A DNA stretch of 64,000 nt from Candidatus Thorarchaeota archaeon (GTDB lineage: Archaea; Asgardarchaeota; Thorarchaeia; Thorarchaeales; Thorarchaeaceae): positions 832,001 to 896,000 of the forward strand of contig CAVSBO010000003.1 of assembly GCA_963726195.1 (NCBI GenBank), written 5' to 3'. A program made the position numbers and the translations under genes. The notes under the pieces were generated by a model, which was given only the letters and a program-made list of their open reading frames with translations, was not told the origin of the DNA and made no database searches. Below are positions 14,877-32,542 of the stretch, one piece after another (position 1 is the stretch's first letter; each line of letters begins with the position of its first letter).

Positions 14877-14905
14877 ATGGTTGACTGTTTATGTCTCCTT
14901 CTGCC

Positions 14906-15092
14906 GTTCATTGTGAGTTGGACAAAGTTGGACACAGGAGTCTTCGTCCGCCCAGAAACGGCACTGGGCTCAAACTCCTTGAGGTCAGGTTCGTGTCGCT
15001 TCAACCTCAATGACTGAATTCCTCATTGAGGCTTATGTACTCCCACAGTTTCATGTCCATGTTTGTCCAGATTCTCGGCAGCTGCCGCTGAA
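14906..15092 (-). mobile_element. 187-bp non-autonomous IS607-family mini-element (MITE-like) related to the 22972-31116 element
   Basis: Minus strand: GG|TTCAGCGGCAGCTGCCGAGAATCTGGACAAACATGGACA...AGCCCAGTGCCGTTTCTGGGCGGAC...TGTCCAACTTTGTCCAACTCACAATGAAC|GG. Both ends match the large element, with GG at 15093-15094 and 14904-14905. Confidence 0.88.
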
Positions 15093-22262: not shown

Positions 22263-22971
22263 GTGATGCACTCATCAGAATCGAATACCGACAGACGATT
22301 GAGAATCAGCCATGGTCGCACTTGCAATTGCCCTCCGAATCACATCAACTGCCTGTCGGCCAAAGAGTGGATTCAGCATCAGATTGCTGTATGGGAGTTC
22401 TACTACGAGGCACGGGATGTGAGGGACAAGAACATTCATCCAGCGACCTATCCCATAGCACTTCCGTCAAAGTGCATATCTCTGTTCACTCATAAGGGTG
22501 AACTGGTGCTGGACCCATTCGTCGGTGTGGGAACAACACTCGTCGCAGCCAGAGACCTCGCACGCAACGCAGTCGGGTTCGACCTAAAGGCGGACTATGT
22601 CGATTTCTCCAACAAGCGGCTGAGCTCTATGTCGGACAATGAGACAACGCAGATTGCATTGTGCGATGACGCTCATAACATACCTTCGTACCTTGAGGAG
22701 GAAACTGTTGCCGTCTGTGTGACATCTCCGCCCTATGCAAACCTCCTGAATCGCCGCAGACAGAACAAGAGTATGAGGGGCAATCTCAGGAAGGATGAAT
22801 ACTATCTCAAGGTACAGCAGTATTCTGACGATCCGAGGGATTTGGGCACCATGGATGCCGAGCCCTATGCGAAAACGCTAGGTGAAATCTTCGGTGGCAT
22901 TCTTCCTTTAATGCGACATAGAGCACACTGTCTTGTCAACATAACTGACTACTGGTGGGAAGACAGAAGGG
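22263..22971 (+). pseudogene. N4-mC/N6-mA DNA methyltransferase, 5' part (interrupted by IS607-family element)
   Basis: HPATYP, DPFVGVGTT (motif I), TSPPY (motif IV). The frame runs into the element left end after DYWWEDRRV. Confidence 0.9.
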
Positions 22972-22989
22972 TTGACAACAGCTGCCTAG

Positions 22990-23009
22990 AAGTTGGACAA
23001 TCTTGGACA
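22990..23009 (+). repeat. Left subterminal repeat: two TTGGACA motifs at 10-bp spacing
   Basis: TTGGACA at 22993-22999 and 23003-23009; 19/20 identical to the reverse complement of 31088-31107. Confidence 0.9.
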
Positions 23010-23048
23010 CCACAGAACTGAAGAGCCGCAGCGCGACTGACACGATGC

Positions 23049-23675
23049 ATGTTGAGTGTGTCAGCAGCTGCGGTCAGGGTTGGGGTCTGTGCAAAAACCA
23101 TCCGACGGTGGGACGACAGGGGTCTTCTCCGATGTTTCAGGACCCGAGGTGGTCACAGACGAGTGCCTCAGTCAGAAATTGAACGAGTCATCTCAGAAAG
23201 GGAGCCGAGAGCAGATTCTCATATGACCTGCTCAAGAGCAACAATCGTGTACGCACGAGTATCGTCCCACGGGCAGAAGGCCTCAGGTGACCTTGACAGA
23301 CAGGTCGGCGAACTGCTCGCAAGTTCTGGCGAGGCATCTCCTCTTGTCCTCCCTGACGTCGGCTCCGGACTCAACATGAGGCGCAGGGGTCTATGGCAGC
23401 TGATACATGCTGCAGAGAGAGGACTCGTCAACCGGGTGATTGTCACTCACAGGGACAGACTGGCCCGCTTCGGGACCGAATTGATTGAGCATATCCTCTG
23501 CCTCCATGGCGTGGCCGTCAATGTCCTTCACGAGAACCGGGACATGACTCCTCAGGAAGAAGTGGTCGCCGATCTGATAGCACTAATTGCATCGTTCTCC
23601 GGACGTATCTATGGGCTTAGAGGTGCCATCCTCAGGGCCACAAGAGACCCGCTCAGACAAAGTTCTACTTCTTGA
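23049..23675 (+). CDS. tnpA: IS607-family serine recombinase transposase
   Basis: N-terminal MerR-like HTH (KTIRRWDDRG...TRGGHRR), catalytic YARVSS, DVGSG, THRDRLARFG, IASFSGRIYG. Confidence 0.95.
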   Translation: MLSVSAAAVRVGVCAKTIRRWDDRGLLRCFRTRGGHRRVPQSEIERVISEREPRADSHMTCSRATIVYARVSSHGQKASGDLDRQVGELLASSGEASPLVLPDVGSGLNMRRRGLWQLIHAAERGLVNRVIVTHRDRLARFGTELIEHILCLHGVAVNVLHENRDMTPQEEVVADLIALIASFSGRIYGLRGAILRATRDPLRQSSTS

Positions 23676-23692
23676 AAAGGGACGCGGTCCTC

Positions 23693-23731
23693 CTCACGAT
23701 TTCTCTCCAGCCCCGGTGGAGAGACCGTGGG
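23693..23731. terminator. Hairpin between convergent tnpA and cargo gene
   Basis: TCTCTCCA (23702-23709) / TGGAGAGA (23717-23724), extended by CTCACG/CGTGGG; terminator function is inferred. Confidence 0.4.
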
Positions 23732-23784
23732 CTTCAAGCTGTTTCTCTACTGCGTTTTCGGTTTTTCCGTCTTGAAACCTTGCG

Positions 23785-26700
23785 TCACTCCTGATTTCCA
23801 GAAGCTGCACCCTGTTCATGAGCCTTCCGGACATCTCTAACCACATCAGGGACCTGCTTCCTCAATACCTCGCCAAGGTTCTCAATGCTCTGGAGTCGAG
23901 GCACTATTTCGAGCTCCACAGCCTCTCTTACTTCTCGCACCGCTTGTTGTACACCTTCGCCGAGCAGGATCTTCGGGTCATCATAGAGCATTCCCGATGC
24001 TGTACGAGTTCCATCGGTTTCTTCACTTACCCAATAGATTGCCTGATTCTGAGAATACAAGGTCACTGTCCACGTCGCTGGCTCCTCCGCGAACTCTTCA
24101 TCATGGCGACCAAGGTGTGTTCCAGCATGATTCAGCCAAGATGTCACTCGCCTGATGAACTGCTGTTTGTTCCTTATGGAGAAACCGCTCATCTCGCCCT
24201 CTCTCATGCTTTCCCTTAGCATGTCTACGACTTCCTCGGCATCCTCTTCACTCTCAATCTCTATTGTCCGTGACAGGAGCGGCTCACGTCGACCCTGTCC
24301 GATAGGAAAGACAGCATATGTACAGCTTGTTTCAGACAGGTCAGAGAGCCGTAGTTCACAAGGTGGGCTTCTTGCCGAGTACCCATGTCCCTTGAGTTCT
24401 GACAGGATTCGCTTCCTGAGCGCTCCGTACTCCTCTATTGCATTCATTGGGATCCGGGACGTGATGACATTCAATATCCTCTGGCACTCTTTCTCCGCGC
24501 CGTGGCCGTGCACCAACTCGATTGTCTGGGGAGTTTCCGTAAGGAATAGTCCTGTGATTGTCGACTGTGCTTGCCACTCGACATACTTCGGCTCTGTACA
24601 TGACAGGCCGACCAGCCAAGTCTGTTCTCTCACTCTCAGATAGGTTCCGGGCTCTAGAGGTTTCAATGACAGACCGTTCCTCCGAAGGAACATGCGGACG
24701 TACTGCTCCTCATGATACACCACGCTTTCATCTTCCCCAGAACCCTAGGCATGACGATGGCAAGTCTGTACAATCGCCCTGCATAGACTCTCCCTGGGGC
24801 AAGGAGCCCATTCACAGCTTCTCCGGTCATCGGTCTTCCAAGCTGTCGCTTTACTTGATTAGGACAGTCTGGCGGCAATGATATCCGCCAGCAGGCACCG
24901 TGATCGTACTCCTCACTATAGGGCGATGGGACAGATCGACTGGTCATGTTCAATGCTCACCTTGAGGGTCCCGGCCTCTTCGAAGAACCCGGACACTCGT
25001 GCAGGGAGTTCCTCCACCTCAGTTCGTGCAGCCTTGAAAGTGACATATGGTCCAATGAAATCCAGTTCTCCGTACACGATATCATCGAAGACACTCCAAG
25101 TGACGTACGTGCCCGAGTCTGTGTACATGGGTCCTGAGTTTGTCATAGGCCATCTGAGGAGTGAAATGAGTTCTGCCGTGTATTCCACGTTCACCTCTTG
25201 GAGGATTTCATCATCGCCATCAACGAACCTAACTTGGCAGACATTATTCACCATCTCAAGACGCACACTGACAGATGCTGGTCGCGTGACAGCCTCGATG
25301 TACCTACGCAGAGAGGCTGCCACACGTTGGTAGAACGACTCTGGTAGTTTCGTTCCTTGAGAAGCTTCAGTAACAGAGGGCTTAGTGAAGGACTGTCTTA
25401 TGGCACGGAGATGACGGACTGATGAGTGCCCCTGTTCCACCAGCTCGAGGACTCCCGAGTAGACTCTCTCATGATCGTCCGTTTCCATGCTCCATGTTTC
25501 CAGCCCCTGTTCAGTTGGTCTGAATTCCATTAGGACTTGTGAGGACCCGAGAATCTCGTCGGGTGTCTGTTGTGTTAGTACCTCTTGTTTGGTCTCACTC
25601 CAGAGGAGCCCCTCCTTGTCTGGAGACTTGCTCATGAAGCAACCAATGAGCATGCGGGCCTCATTCTCGGGGTCCTGCATGACAAGCCACCAGGGAAGAG
25701 CAGTCTCATCCTCCGGTAGAAACCTGATTCCAAACGTCAGTCCAGCCGTCGTTCTTTCACTGGAAGTGACAAGCTCCACTGTCTTTGGAGGAAATGCAAC
25801 AATGGTTCCTGGCCTTGTCTTCAACCTATTGGGTGAGCGGTAGAGCCGCTGGGAATTGATTCTACCCAGGGTCGTGGCCACGTACCCCTTGCCGGCCCCT
25901 GTCTCAGGGTGTCGGTAGCGCACAAGGTCAAGGACACTTGGAGTCTTGGCGGGAGGCCCATCAAGAACTCGTACTTCGAAAGTCAGGTCATCAGGGGCTC
26001 CTCTGAACTCATGCATGACTGCGTCGAACCGTTCCTTGATGCTCTCTTTCGAGTCATCTGAGAGCATCTTGTCAGGCCACAGGCAGACAAGCCAAGGGAG
26101 CAAGGTCATCGAGAGGAGCCTTATCCTGCTGCGAGTAGCCTTGTCGGGTACGATGTCGTCCAGCCCTCTCTCCTGCACAACGAGTCCCTTCCCTTGGTTC
26201 TTGAACCGCCTTGACCAGCCCCTCAGCGGAGGTACGAGCACGAGCTCAGTGTTCATGTCTTCGGGAGAATGGCGAACGACTACTCGGATATCATCATGCA
26301 TTGGTGAGTCCCCGATGACTGGCAACCCACATTTCTCAGGCTCGACAGCATTCCTTGGTGCCACAGGTAGGTTCCAGACAATCTCAGTGACGACCTCAGC
26401 AAGAGATGAATTGTCATAGAATGGGAGAAGGGCTCTGGTTGCATATGGGACGGACTTCTCGGAAGAGGGCGTAGGTGCATCGAACCACAGGACCGTCGTC
26501 TTCTTGTTGTCTGGAAGACTGTCCAGAAGCTGGTCCATTACGACCTGTAGTCTATCTCGGTGGCTCTCCGGAGTTGCATCTCGCAGGGTATCTGCCCCCG
26601 TCACGATGACTATTGTGTGGCTATTGATGCCCTTGTCCAGCTCGAACGATGGTATGTCTCCACCCTCATAGAGATATGATAGGATTTCGTCAAGGCGCCC

Positions 26701-28745
26701 TCTAACCTCTATGCCTTGAAAGAACTCTCGAATATGGTCTGGTTGCGTCTTCGCCACCTCGTCATCAGAGTATCCTCTTGGCCTTAGGCGAAGGCGTGCC
26801 TCTGCAAGGTGGGGCTCAGTGAACTGACTTGCAAGGTCAAACCAAACAAACCGTGCACCGAGGTGGCTCTCTTTCATCTCATAGAGCATCTGAAGCCCAT
26901 GATAGTTCCGTGCATTCCAGGCGGCGGACTGGCCTGCAGATGTCGGGGATCTCCCTACAAGATAGAGAATGAATCTTCGTCTGCTCTCTAGGCTCTGCTG
27001 GAACGGGTTGTAGAGTGGTTTCCACGGGACGTCAATAGCCTCTCCCCCCTGCTTCTCAGGAACGACTTGCTCATGAATGATCAGAGCGACTCTGCTATTG
27101 CTTCCTCCAATAGGCCTGATGGCCGTTCTTTGAACTGCTCCACTCATCTTCTTGATGGATTCATAGGCCTTTACCAATAGCCCTTCAATGGTTCGTCTGG
27201 CTTTATTGATATCAGTAATGGACTCGATGACTATCGTTCCTCTTGGCACGTACCTTGGCTCCAGCCCAGTGGCTTCATGGTATCTCTCAGCCAGCGCTTG
27301 TGCATAGACCTCTACTTGTCGCTGTGCAGATGCGCTGGGAGCGGATTTGACAATGGCGTCCCATTCTTTGTCCTCAAGAGTTCGGTCTTCAACGGGTAGC
27401 TCAGCAACAATACGGGGAGGAAGCCCTCTATGCAATCTGGACTCAGATGATTTCTCTTCAGCATCAATATGCCACTGATGCCCCATGCGGGTCTTGATCT
27501 CGCAGACGAATGCTGGTCTCCAGAGGATTTGTTTCCCGTCAGCTGTGATGATCCTCTCTAGAAGTAGAATGTCCACTTTTCCCAACCCGGACTCAGTCAC
27601 TATCGCCAGCTCTGACACAATAGCATACTCAGAGGCCCCTACATACCTATGTCCATTGAAGATGACGTCATTCAGATGCCATGGGCTGGGAAAGAGGTCT
27701 GATATCCTTCTGTGCATTATCGACCCCTTTAGTTTCGCTCGACTGGTTGCCTGCTGTCTGATGTATTCGACATCAGCTTTGGTTAGGCACGGTTCTTCAA
27801 GACCGGGCGTTCTAATGAAACCCCTCTGTGTCAGTCGTTCAAGCTCTTGAAGAGCAGGATGATTGCCATAGAATGTCAGTGCTTCGTCGAGCTGGCTCCG
27901 AAAGAAGTCGAAGGACGTATTGGATGCTCCATGTTCGAAGTCCCCCATCACGCTCTTGGCCGCTTGCATCGTGGGGTGATACCCGGACTCTGAAATCAGC
28001 TCTTTCACTCTTCGAAGAGCAGCGTTCGCCCCCTTTCTGAACTCTGGTCTCCCACACTTGTGCTCTGAGTAGATGTATTCAAGATAAGGTCGTACAAGAA
28101 GGAGAAGGAGATTGCAGTACTTGGTGGTCTCGCTCACAGGCACATCACAGATTGTGCAGTAGGTGGCAAGATACTCACCATGACTCCGAGCAGCATCACC
28201 AAAGTCCATAGAGGGAAGGTCAGGATGCGTGAGCATGACTCGTGGCCCGAAGGAGGACCCCTCGTATCCTGCGACTCTAAACTCTTTTCTGTGAGATCCC
28301 GCTCGCACTGTACGTGTTCCAAATTGAGTGGCATCAGGAAATGGGAACTCTCTCTGTGAGAACTCTCTGAGGGTAGCACCACATGCATTAAACCGCTGGT
28401 TCAGAGGACCCACAGTGCCATCAGGATTCTTCTGTCTGGAGACCTCAGTATGCCCAAATTCAGCAGCCTTCTCATAGAGCATCTTGAGCATGTTGTTCCT
28501 GATTTGAGGTTCAGCCTTGAGAACGGACGAGCAGTCAGGGGTACCTCGTTCCTTGCTCAGAAGATAGACGTGTCGAGTCTCTGCCAAATCTCGTAGGAAC
28601 TCCAGTAATGAGCACAGGTCAGTCTGTTCTTCATGCTACATTGGAGTTTCACCGTCGAGGCAAGCCCTGTCCGCAATGCAGCTGACATGACACGTTCTGG
28701 ATGAACGGGTAGTGGCCGAACAGGACGCCCTCTTGGCCTTGCCAT
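23785..28745 (-). CDS. Giant cargo protein (~1,650 aa) with RecB/Cas4-type PD-(D/E)XK nuclease and degenerate RecA-like region; three frameshifts (~28637, ~24917, ~24735)
   Basis: ORFs 28557-28745, 24916-28587, 24663-24953 and 23785-24723 join seamlessly with single indels. Motifs: GSIMH, SELAI, GKVDILL, CEIKT, QRQVEVY. Confidence 0.75.
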
Positions 28746-28955
28746 CTCACTGATAGGATGGCATTGTGATATTTAAGTTCATTTTTTGGAAGTAACAGGC
28801 GCGGAACTCAGGTATCAAGAACTGGCTTGTTTCATAAAATCTGCCCCTTCTTCTTTATCAAACAAAAGGCTAACCTTTTACTCTGGTAATTATACGTCGC
28901 TTGCTTTTGTATGCCCTTATATCCCGACTTCAGCACCAATATGCGGTAGAGGCTG
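28746..28955. promoter_or_regulatory. AT-rich divergent promoter region for cargo gene and tnpB
   Basis: Clearly AT-richer than the flanks; TATA-like TTAAAT on the minus strand near 28770 and CTTATAT near 28918. Confidence 0.5.
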
Positions 28956-31087
28956 ATGAAGAGACAACCCCGGCGTCATCCCCGGGCGCCAAACCATGAC
29001 GTACAACAGGCAAGGCAACAAACAATGGATGATAATTATACGTCCTCTTCATCCACTTACCAAGCCGAGAAGTTCTCTCTCAACTCATATCCTAGAATTG
29101 TCGATCGAAAGGGAAAGAAAAGACGACCTGACCCTTCCTTCTCCGCAACACACAGACCCCCCGTCGAACAAGCACTAAGGGAGCTTGTCAGCGGCAACAA
29201 GTGCTCTGACATCGATATCCAGACACTTGAGCAGCACTTCGACAAGTATCTCAATGCAGTCAATCTCGTACTTGATGAGGTATACTCTGCTTCCGATCGC
29301 GCCCAGCGTGTCGGAGAGCGATTGCGCTCTTCAAGAGGACAAGGCTATGTAGTACTAAGAGAAGAGAACTTTCTAGAATGGAAACCGGACAACAGGTTCG
29401 GACAACTAGTCTATGAGCGAATGTATCGTAATGTCCTTGAGACCGCAGCCCGCATCGTGTTGGCTGACTACACGCGCAGGACACTGGTCAACTCACTAAT
29501 CACGATGCTGGCGAGTGATAGGCAGCAACTCAAGTCGCTCATGGCTCTCAAACGAATCCCTGCTCCTCTTGTCAGAAAGCTGCGAGCGACAGTCGGTGAA
29601 ACATCTGGTTCGTACTATCACTACGCGCTCACGGCATGCAAACAGCTTCGAAGAGCACTCGATGAACACCTCCTTGAGAGCTTCGGCGAGTCCACATCCA
29701 TCCGAAGACTAGCAAGGGACCGAGTTCGCGACCTTCTCGATACTCAATCGTCTGAATCAATCAAGGCCATGAATGCAACACTCAAGAAAGTGCAGAAATG
29801 GCACAAGACCGGTTTTCCATTCACTGCTCCCATTTTCAGACAAACCACCATGGACTTTACTGCATCTACTGAAAACACAACAGGACAAGGGTACTGGTTC
29901 ATGGAGGACTCCGAGCGACAGGACGAGGTTATCCTGTATATCAAGACCCCTCCCGGGGTCACAGGTCGTCAAGCCACGCCTGATTCACCGTACAAGAGCC
30001 AAACTCTTCGATTCAGGTTCCTCGACTGGTTGCCCCGAAAGGCAGCCCGTGCTCACAAAAAGGCAGAGGAGTCGAAAGCTCACGGTCATTTCAGCAGGGC
30101 CGTGGAGTCTGAATATCGTGCTGCACGCTTTGACGATATGACCCAACAGCTGAGGAACAATGTCAGACTGCAGTGCCTGAATAGACAACTTTCTTCTCTG
30201 AAGTCCAGAAAGGACATCGATGGAGAGAGGGTCAATGAACTGAAAGCCCAGATAACGGCGCTCAGACAGACCAGAAGGTGTGCCCCGCCCATCCTCAGTC
30301 TGCGAGGACACACTGCCACACTCATTATTCCCTTCCTATGCCCTGACAAACAGATGCTGAAACGAGTGCTGCCAACAGTCCCAAGGACAGGCAGGGCAGG
30401 AGTCGACCGGGGTCTGAGATATCCGGTGGTCCTCTCAGTAAAGAACGGTGCAAACAGTATGATGAAACAAAGATAGGAAGGCCAGAGTCATTCGAGAGAC
30501 GCGAGAGGCTCAGACAACGTACACGAGTCTTGATGTCACAGATCGTGCGACGACGGAACAACTGGGACAGGAAACGACCGATGCTGTCACCTCCGTCCTC
30601 TATTCTGAAACGGGAGAGAGAGCTGGAGGCAGTGTGGGCCAAGGTCCGACGCATCGACCGAGAAATCTCCCATCAGCTGGCCGCTGAGACCGTCTGGTTC
30701 TGTGAGCATCGTGGTGTCAAGACTGTCTACTTCGAAGACCTACGGTACTTCCAACCACAGGGCGGGTTCAAAACTCATTCATGGGAGCTGTCAACCAACC
30801 TCTGGGGGAAAATCATTGAAGGGGTCCGATATCGCAGACAGGCCCTAGGTCACAAGTACGGTGGAGTATGGACTGTGAACCCAGCCATGACATCCCAGAG
30901 ATGTAGTACCTGTGGTGAGAAAGGAGTGCGCGTCAGAGACAGTGATTCCACAGAGGAGGAGCACGGTGGGGAGTTCTTCTACTGCCCGAGCTGTGACCTC
31001 AAACTGCACGCAGACGTGAACGCGGCCAGAAACATCCTTATGATTCAACAACCCAAGCCCAGTGCCGTTTCTGGGCGGACTGCTTGA
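28956..31087 (+). CDS. tnpB: Large TnpB/Cas12-like RNA-guided endonuclease (~710 aa), one frameshift near 30452
   Basis: RuvC-I GVDRG (D484), RuvC-II YFEDL, VNPAMTSQRCSTC...CPSC zinc finger, RuvC-III HADVNAARNI. The downstream frame is open from ~30452 (QYDETKIGRPESF...). Confidence 0.88.
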
Positions 31088-31118
31088 TGTCCAAGTTTGT
31101 CCAACTTACAATGAACGG
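31056..31118 (+). ncRNA. Putative 3' part of TnpB omega/re-RNA scaffold (hairpin plus terminal pseudoknot)
   Basis: GCCCAG/CTGGGC stem; loop CCGTT is complementary to terminal AACGG; the 25-nt block is identical in the mini-element. The 5' boundary cannot be defined from sequence. Confidence 0.6.
31088..31107 (-). repeat. Right subterminal repeat: two TTGGACA motifs (inverted) at 10-bp spacing
   Basis: TGTCCAA at 31088-31094 and 31098-31104. Confidence 0.9.
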
Positions 31119-31294
31119 TTCCTGCTCACATGTATGTCATCAATGCATTGCAGGATGTAGGGTACGAACTCCGTAACATAATCATCTGGGACAGGCAGAA
31201 CATAGTGAACCGTGCTGGCATCTTCGGGTGGCCCAACAATTACATCACTCTCAGCACGACCTTCGAGTACATTGTTGATTTCTGGCGTCCATGA
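31119..31294 (+). pseudogene. DNA methyltransferase, 3' part
   Basis: PAHMYVINALQDVGYELRNIIIWDRQN...TTFEYIVDFWRP-stop, typical of N4/N6 MTases (IIW, EYI); in frame with the 5' part after element removal. Confidence 0.9.
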
Positions 31295-31351
31295 TGAGCC
31301 TCGTCAGTGACAAGCCACAGGTCACATGATTTGATTGACATGACAGGATTC

Positions 31352-32430
31352 TCAGATTCCGAGAATGGGAAATACCAATTCCTTGACCTTTCGAACTGTT
31401 TCGCGCACGGTCATCCATATTTCTGCATCATCCTTGAAAGGCGGCTTTTGCTTGGGAGGAGAATACTTGCGACCTGACAAGCACGGATATGACCGTGGCC
31501 ACACCCCAGCACAAAGAGTCTGGATGGTACCCTCCGCCCGTCACTACTCCAAGTCGACCGTCACTCCACTTGTGTGCTGCATTGTGTATTCTCTCTGCGA
31601 TGTATCTTATCATCGTCGTCGTCAGTTTGAGGTGCGCTAGGCGATCCAGGTAATGTGCATCAAAGCCGGGCAGAAACAGGATGAACTGAGGACGAAAGAA
31701 ATCGACCAGCTTCGGGACCAGCTCGTCAAAGGCATATCTGTATACTCCATCGCCCGCGTCCATCGGAAATGGCATATTGATGTTGTAGCCGGAGCCACGA
31801 CCAGAACCGACCTCGTTCACGTACCCTTCGTGAGGGTACATCCATTCAGGATCCTCATGGAAAGAGATGACCATGACCTCCGGATCGTCGTAGAAGTACG
31901 CTTGGTCCCCATTTCCGTGGTGGACATCGAAATCCGCGACAAGTATTCGATTCAGACCATTCTGTTTGAGCTCGCTAACAGCGGCCGCGATATCATTGAA
32001 AACACAGAAGCCACCACCCTTATCGAACTTGGCGTGATGAAAGCCGCCGGTGGGAGACATAAAGTGCTCCACGCGTCCCGACATGATTGAGTGGACTCCA
32101 GTGACGGTAGCACCGGACAAAACTAGAGCATTCTCGTATATTCCTCTGAAACCCGGCGTGTCTATGTCAATCTCACCTTGGCCGGTCTCAGAAATCGTTC
32201 TGACCTTCTCAATGTATTCGGAGGAATGCACGCGCTCGAGAATGGGCACAGGAAGAGACTCTGCTTGTCAGCTCAGTTACGTTCTGAGATGCAAGCAGCC
32301 CGGCCGAATCCAAGAAATCCCTGATCATTCTGAAACGCCCGGGTCTCAATGGGTGCCGGTCACCATAGTCAAAACTGTCGAAGACCGGGCTCCACATGAA
32401 GCCGACTTGGCAGTCTCTCCTCGGGATCAC
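31352..32430 (-). CDS. Histone deacetylase/AcuC-family protein, two frameshifts
   Basis: HPLRPGR (upstream frame), GGFHHA, GFCVFND, DFDVHHGNG, GFDAH, GGGY; C-terminus continues in another frame to 31352. Confidence 0.85.
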
Positions 32431-32542
32431 ACACCGCCACCATTCCAGCTTTTGGTAAGCTTCGGAATCACGCGTACTAATGGATGCCGATTTGAGTGTC
32501 AGTGTTGTGTGACGCAAACGGAATGTTAGTGCCTAAATTGCA

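Follow-up and report, generated by a model that had tools for sequence, protein, structure and literature searches.

A three-gene element inside a methyltransferase gene

The DNA analysed here (the window) is a 64,000-nucleotide stretch of a Candidatus Thorarchaeota archaeon genome (assembly GCA_963726195.1, contig CAVSBO010000003.1, positions 832,001 to 896,000), in which we found an 8.1-kb element of three genes, a serine recombinase gene tnpA, a giant gene and a large tnpB, inserted in the gene of a host N6/N4 DNA methyltransferase (PF01555). It is a genuine mobile element with base-exact ends. The 5' part of the interrupted gene lies at 22263..22969 and the 3' part at 31119..31296, both on the plus strand, and GG dinucleotides flank the element at 22970..22971 (+), the core of the left junction with target AG|GG, and at 31117..31118 (+), the core of the right junction. 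Deletion of 22972-31118, keeping one GG, makes a 295-aa methyltransferase frame whole again. This was corroborated by genome G022, of the same genus, whose contig C80 is collinear with the window over 25 kb, its only large break running from 22973 to 31114; the methyltransferase of that contig, 87-97% identical, is uninterrupted, and its insertion point reads AG-GG. A second empty allele is provided by a contig from run X6, which joins 22965 to 31145. There is no target duplication at the window copy and one GG at the empty site, as in IS607 elements. A first-pass annotation of this DNA had claimed GG at both boundaries and the restoration of the host frame on excision, and both claims held; the empty methyltransferase alleles that it had suggested looking for are the two just described.

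The left end (22972..23012, +) contains two TTGGACA repeats (22993-22999 and 23003-23009) and the left arm of a subterminal inverted repeat, whose right arm lies in the right end (31058..31116, +) together with the 3' part of a predicted omegaRNA scaffold, the last bases of which are the GG of the right junction. The arms (22990-23012 and 31085-31107), earlier given as 20 bp long, are present and measure 23 nt (91%); they lie 19 nt (left) and 9 nt (right) inside the junctions, and the pair had the top complementarity among the longest inverted pairs. That the region is a compositional island was considered and rejected, the GC content of the element (0.49-0.56) being the same as that of its flanks.

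The gene at the left, tnpA (23049..23675, +), encodes an intact 208-aa IS607 serine recombinase with a MerR-type helix-turn-helix (HTH) and a resolvase domain (Pfam PF12728/PF00376 and PF00239), in which the serine of the YARVSS motif is residue 72, and it is the sole match of its clade in the genome at E<=1e-20. The window insertion was most likely made by TnpA. The compact layout that is typical, though not strict, for IS607 elements is absent, and the 5.3-kb gap between tnpA and tnpB is filled by the giant gene (23785..28745, minus strand), of about 1,650 codons, which we identify below as aCas1. Across a divergent intergenic region (28746..28955, unstranded), presumed to hold promoters, lies the large tnpB (28956..31087, +), of about 710 codons, in which RuvC D/E/D motifs, a zinc finger and a TNB domain were detected and whose 58 intact relatives measure 666-794 aa from stop to stop.

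The giant gene, previously described as one open frame, reads in four pieces (56 + 1219 + 57 + 318 = 1,650 codons) with breaks near 28577, 24918 and 24745, and tnpB, described as oversized, is split in two (about 500 + 209 codons) by a frame break near 30457. Related copies (runs X2, X4 and X6) have single-base insertions or deletions at three of these four breaks (28577, 24917-19 and 30457). The window copy is therefore either decaying or affected by assembly indels, at least one of about 18 neighbouring host genes being split as well. A deacetylase-family neighbour (31428-32517) is apparently split across two frames, and a methyltransferase paralogue on contig C7 of the same genome (G000:C7:120939-121821) has a frame break near codon 63; these two breaks suggest scattered assembly indels. 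As assembled, the window copy is predicted to encode full TnpA but not full-length aCas1 or TnpB. Of the earlier description as a three-gene IS607-type element, the family, the ends and the gene order stand, while the frameshifts of the giant gene and tnpB had been missed.

Intact gene copies were found at loci L039 and L041 and on contig C16 of the window genome, which carries an intact pair of giant gene (L001:1690-6816) and tnpB (L001:7000-9168). On contig C8 a 7.6-kb copy without tnpA sits at a GG in a short-chain dehydrogenase/reductase (SDR) gene, and its removal restores the SDR frame, with no duplication. Beside this copy, about 1.7 kb consisting mostly of homopolymer runs (G000:C8:114720-116450, about 9720-11000 of L002) is probably an assembly artefact.

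The giant protein and its relatives

Structure models were made for the intact C16 paralogue (L001), folded as two halves with a predicted local distance difference test (pLDDT) score of 87 and 83. In these models residues 5-257 resemble the catalytic helical domain of Cas1 (VIA Z 12.8, root-mean-square deviation 3.8, 176 aligned; Z 10.9 for the match to casposase) and residues 591-890 a RecA/Rad51 fold, and the alignment places a PD-(D/E)xK nuclease with a RecB-type Q-x3-Y motif at residues 350-530. Residues ~997-1180 again resemble Cas1, weakly, 7 of the top 8 rows being Cas1- or casposase-type chains (Z 5.4-6.2), among which we count 2yzs, titled 'uncharacterized' and presumably a Cas1 chain; the modelled region is a probable degenerate second Cas1 domain. 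The protein would read as Cas1, nuclease, RecA and probable second Cas1-like parts and a beta-rich tail, and no fold match was found for residues ~1200-1600, a region modelled only within its half. For the giant protein no useful match came from Pfam, from a PDB profile search or from the Atlas feature search; Foldseek returned the RecA fold only, with no match for the C-terminal half, Cas1 surfacing with VIA alone. The Cas1 residues E77, H189, D196 and D199 and the nuclease residues E387, D400, K424, Q477 and Y481 are invariant in 75 of 75 proteins, the window copy included, with or without tnpA; the Walker A lysine and Walker B aspartate of the RecA fold are not conserved. aCas1 is reported to go back to Makarova et al. 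2020 in the CRISPR J.

Judged by its conserved residues and modelled fold, the giant gene encodes aCas1, known from Asgard aCas1-TnpB loci already in the literature (groups Cas1H-Asgard-1 and -2; Altae-Tran et al. 2023, PMC10691335). What the first-pass annotation took for an unknown nuclease cargo, in an architecture it did not recognise as described, is a Cas1-fold protein with a RecB-type nuclease domain, and its pairing with TnpB had already been published. In the main text of PMC10691335, aCas1 is reported to replace the Y1 or serine recombinase, and the paper places a GTTCACTCA motif downstream of tnpB.

Almost all homologues with a named source belong to Thorarchaeota. We found the protein in 52 of the 87 genomes of the class, often in several copies, and in 48 of the 85 genomes of the family; elsewhere in the phylum it occurred only in 3 of 12 genomes of one other family. 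A head-to-head tnpB accompanies it in 59 of 60 loci, which had been fetched for the giant gene alone, and the exception ends at a contig edge. Two classes of TnpB pair with aCas1, one of about 710 aa, to which the window belongs, and one of about 560 aa with a rearranged RuvC-II; tnpA is present with the large class only, and a tnpA of the window's clade was in none of the 560-aa-class loci fetched. Both classes coexist in the window genome, as judged from L004 (G000:C16:217331-223383), where a frameshifted aCas1 and a 563-aa TnpB adjoin tRNA-Asp.

The order tnpA, giant gene, large tnpB recurs at nine other loci (L039, L041, L086, L088, L093, L096, L124, L125 and L144), which span seven genomes and six genera, with tnpA partial in L124 and L144; both ends are present in seven of the nine, each at a different GG site. 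The right junction is GG in 21 of 22 elements that bear a left end, and L124, which bears one, ends in GA. A nested insertion of the giant gene was considered and rejected, since no separate ends border this gene and in several relatives it directly adjoins tnpA, with 0-16 nt between the two stops. The earlier expectations that the same gene order would be met between the same ends elsewhere, and that the giant gene moves as a unit of an IS607-type element, are both borne out. Where tnpA lies next to tnpB, one or other of these genes is truncated, and a stub of the giant gene persists at some of the loci; from their sequences these loci appear to be deletions of the three-gene form.

Variant layouts were also seen. 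At L122 (G042:C189) and L129, aCas1 is co-oriented with tnpA, and two added open reading frames (about 340 and 245-280 aa) lie between aCas1 and the large tnpB; L080 and L081 carry an additional ~1 kb between aCas1 and the 560-aa tnpB; and at L104 (G042:C49) the host gene of the left flank has its 3' end repeated, in diverged form and over 68 bp, after the right end.

The two TnpB classes are intermixed on a fast aCas1 tree, with class changing at least nine times, and the nearest neighbour of the window aCas1 pairs with the other class. That the aCas1-TnpB pairing survives repeated exchange of TnpB argues for function, not hitch-hiking, and aCas1 is a near-obligate partner of TnpB rather than of TnpA. 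The first-pass annotation had instead read the giant gene as cargo. It might be passive or defensive, with no role in mobility, and one could cite for this the solo large-tnpB and tnpA-stub + tnpB derivatives that occur without it, as well as the miniature inverted-repeat transposable elements (MITEs) that spread without it in cis. We find this improbable in view of the head-to-head pairing across two unrelated TnpB classes and their many exchanges, of the failure to find any TnpB-free aCas1, and of the truncated genes that mark the tnpA + tnpB loci without a giant gene as deletions.

We read the element as an IS607-family transposon of Thorarchaeota that carries an aCas1-TnpB module, with a probability of about 0.7. 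Several points weigh against this. Most aCas1 loci are without tnpA, so that TnpA is not the sole route by which the module spreads or persists, and the loci, drawn from related genomes, do not count as independent. The domain calls derive from models predicted for a paralogue that shares only 26% identity with the window protein, and the putative second Cas1-like domain reaches only the Z values given above, with no profile similarity between the two Cas1-like domains in hhalign. Lastly, a search for the circle (end-to-end) junction, another check that had been proposed, found none in four runs, a weak test as it covered assembled contigs only.

We hypothesise that TnpA would insert and excise the element through a double-stranded circular form, recombining it at the GG within AG|GG without a duplication, by the chemistry known from IS607 work. 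The large TnpB would load an omegaRNA made of the right end and about 20 nt of flank and would cut the empty allele beside a G-rich target-adjacent motif (TAM), upon which the element would be copied back, and aCas1 would be a working partner of TnpB, probably trimming, pairing and joining DNA ends at the site that TnpB has bound or cut. The same TnpB/aCas1 process could give rise to copies without tnpA and left end and with a duplication of about 9 bp, footprints of which we observed, and the intact TnpA of the window probably mobilises in trans the 12 MITEs of the genome and the tnpA-less copy on C8.

A predicted guide RNA, MITEs and a second insertion footprint

At the right end, a hairpin (31058-31075) has a loop that can pair with AAC|GG to form a pseudoknot, and compensatory pairs were found across 63 large-TnpB elements: the first stem pair is C-G in 30 and T-A in 30, and the last pseudoknot pair, paired in 59 of the 63, is C-G in 46, T-A in 6, T-G in 6 and A-T in 1. 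The minimum-energy fold of the window right end was no better than that of shuffles (z -0.7), and the case for a scaffold is one of covariation only. IS607 TnpB RNA has a pseudoknot and a scaffold ending in GG (10.1101/2023.11.20.567912), and the window has, as IS607 elements do, a predicted omegaRNA overlapping the right end and a RuvC-bearing tnpB, here frameshifted. By analogy with that work, the guide would consist of the ~20 nt with which the 3' part of the methyltransferase begins and would target the empty allele, with a TAM that is probably AGGG-like. No full self target of this guide adjoining AGGG was found in the window genome.

Non-autonomous MITEs that bear an omegaRNA are known for IS200/605/607 elements. 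The 12 MITEs of the window genome (183-187 bp) likewise keep both ends and the scaffold, and they differ in having these ends in common with an aCas1-bearing parent; 10 of the 12 have AG before the core. One, of 186 bp, lies inside the window (14904-15090, minus strand; G000:C3:846904), with 11 further sites elsewhere. They carry a TATA-like box as well as the scaffold, and may supply guide RNAs in trans.

Just 3' of the 560-aa tnpB, seven loci (L065, L067, L069, L071, L075, L079 and L087) show a row of two or three short pieces with a CAGGTC-type repeat between them. Some of the pieces match tRNA or 16S rRNA, the latter in L065 (25 nt), in L067 (antisense) and in L075 (16S 3' tail), and the pieces may be stacked guides or the remains of earlier targets. 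Such rows in several 560-aa-class elements, together with the presence of Cas1 and a Cas4-like nuclease, which is the layout of adaptation modules, could mean that aCas1 writes guide cassettes for TnpB (spacer acquisition) and is not a mover of the element. We consider this very unlikely: neither the window nor any of the IS607 copies with a left end, whose guide is plain flank, holds an array, and no Cas2 or CRISPR repeat was seen. Elsewhere the predicted guide resembles the 5' part or D-arm of a tRNA (L089, L092, L110, L112, L114, L128, L134, L044, L049 and L050), and most of these ten loci have an intact tRNA-Lys or tRNA-Arg 40-80 nt off on the opposite strand; at L059, L061, L062 and L083, of the 560-aa class, 40-55-bp imperfect direct repeats of the tRNA-Gly 3' part resemble an attachment-site duplication.

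A second kind of insertion footprint was detected among the relatives. Of the 15 aCas1 elements that lack a left end, 5 are flanked by exact 8-9-bp duplications, compared with 1 of 22 elements that have one and with 0.5% in shuffled pairs, the level expected by chance; as the first left-end detector missed the variant end of L113, a few loci in the left-end-less group may be misclassified. Four of the five duplications in aCas1-bearing copies are exactly 9 bp long, and duplications of 12 bp were found in 2 of 15 solo-tnpB elements. Empty alleles confirmed the duplications of L038, L040, L117 and L154, and those of L036 show contiguous flanks. L113 and L117 are sisters, 93.7% identical, at different sites: L113, which has a left end, is cleanly inserted at GG and matches three empty alleles, whereas L117 lacks the left end and has the first 9 bp of the target on both sides, in agreement with its empty allele. 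The empty sites of L040 and L154 read AG-GA or AG-GC, not GG. Fillers lie between the duplication and the stop of aCas1. Two of them can be aligned with the part of three-gene elements that holds tnpA, and as tnpA remnants they identify their copies as left-truncated derivatives of a three-gene parent; that fillers are captured flank DNA was rejected on these two, three others being unassigned. L144 has target sequence in place of the first 11 nt of its left end, which is otherwise intact. Genes for tRNA neighbour 10 of 40 left-end-less copies and 11 of 36 elements of the 560-aa class versus 0 of 23, counts in which kin are not independent. In the 560-aa class the 9-bp duplication test gave 3 of 30, near chance, and the association of non-GG right junctions with left-end loss (10/41 vs 1/22) was not significant (p 0.08). 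In the large-TnpB class, a 20-mer test and a local-alignment test for repeats in the flanks were of low power.

The 8-9-bp duplications point to a second insertion route, either integration by aCas1 or aborted homing by TnpB. In the case of aborted homing, to which we incline though at less than even odds, TnpA would insert the element and later excise it, TnpB would cut the empty site, and copying from the right flank would halt early and be end-joined, with aCas1 only assisting or with host enzymes acting in its place. This agrees with left ends that are variable truncations of the parent and with the replaced terminus of L144, and such copies, which cannot excise, would accumulate. It would nevertheless need a prior TnpA insertion at non-GG sites in the two cases checked against empty alleles, it does not account for the modal length of 9 bp, and it leaves the invariant catalytic residues of Cas1 unexplained if host enzymes suffice.

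Alternatively, aCas1 could be a second transposase, a single-chain Cas1 pseudo-dimer for which TnpB may select the site, which would attach the right end at the first position past the TAM (+1) and the left end, once trimmed by the nuclease, at +9, and so produce the 9-bp duplication. The predominance of exactly 9 bp, the sites of L040 and L154, which a strict-GG TnpA should avoid, the absence of tnpA of the window's clade from the 560-aa-class loci fetched and the tRNA genes beside left-end-less copies, as in casposons (PMC9939771), are all compatible with this, and such a role is predicted in PMC10691335. On the other hand, the copies with duplications have no conserved left end, while casposase requires terminal inverted repeats; the filler remnants indicate truncations of an IS607 parent; the 12-bp duplications occur in solo-tnpB copies too; the 560-aa class has repeats in just 3 of 30; and L124, with its left end, also ends in GA. 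We regard a transposase role as possible but rather unlikely, and lean slightly towards homing scars because the left ends are unconserved truncations. Slightly less probable is a one-chain Cas1 integrase, in which an active and a degenerate Cas1, a trimming nuclease and a RecA-fold DNA binder would act on the right end only, together with TnpB-omegaRNA, and leave the 9-bp duplication.

Relation to known systems and meaning

The element fits IS607 in its recombinase, its ends and empty site and its tnpB with a predicted omegaRNA, not in a compact layout, and is neither a casposon nor a CRISPR-associated transposon (CAST). With the published Asgard aCas1-TnpB loci it shares a diverged Cas1 homologue (catalytic E/H/D) adjoining TnpB and an Asgard host, and GTTCACTCA follows the 560-aa TnpB class that pairs with the same giant family; this motif is absent from the 710-aa class of the window, which ends in AAC|GG. 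It differs from what the main text of PMC10691335 describes in that aCas1 is accompanied by an intact IS607 TnpA, by ends with a GG core and by empty sites without a scar, and some of the loci without tnpA derive from the three-gene form by truncation. Coexistence of aCas1 with a serine recombinase is not described in the literature searched, although it may be in the supplement of PMC10691335. With the IS607 IStron of C. botulinum (10.1101/2023.11.20.567912) the element has in common an HTH-serine recombinase, a GG core, a scarless empty site, a G-rich target (TGGG in the IStron, mostly AGGG here) and a GG-ended scaffold with a pseudoknot; it differs in its length (8.1 kb versus about 2 kb), in the 5-kb antisense gene between tnpA and tnpB, in a TnpB of about 710 aa, and in that no group I intron is evident in the window element, where no search was aimed at introns.

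Casposons (PMC9939771) similarly have a stand-alone Cas1-fold protein in a mobile element, and the relatives share with them target duplications and tRNA-adjacent sites. Here, however, there is no PolB and there are only three genes between the ends, the Cas1 part has no N-terminal beta domain and is fused within a protein of 1,400-1,900 aa, the window copy has no duplication and a subterminal repeat, and the relatives' duplications are 8-12 bp compared with about 15, with no left terminal repeat. As for CRISPR type V and CAST, no array was found among the repeats of the window, and there were no Pfam matches to tnsB, tnsC or tniQ.

The aCas1-TnpB pair was already published, and the new details are an aCas1 riding an IS607 element, a second landing mode among the relatives of that element, a same-genus empty allele, a duplication footprint checked against empty alleles, a link between parent and derivatives and a probable second Cas1 domain. 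In the literature searched, aCas1 is a predicted transposase that was neither tested nor had its element ends defined. The element described here supplies base-exact ends, empty alleles, a target motif, a predicted RNA scaffold, intact copies and two insertion footprints, and the role of aCas1 beside TnpB thereby becomes directly testable. If aCas1 does not integrate at sites chosen by TnpB, the published picture still needs correcting, since the serine recombinase has not been displaced by aCas1 in the window's class, and truncation of an IS607 parent gave rise to at least some of the loci without tnpA. If it does, this would link casposases, Cas1-Cas4 adaptation and RNA-guided transposition in a compact guided integrase. 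Were the one-chain Cas1 integrase to prove true, the element would possess two integration chemistries, and TnpB and aCas1 would together form a natural two-gene, TnpB-directed integrase, often acting at tRNA or rRNA genes.

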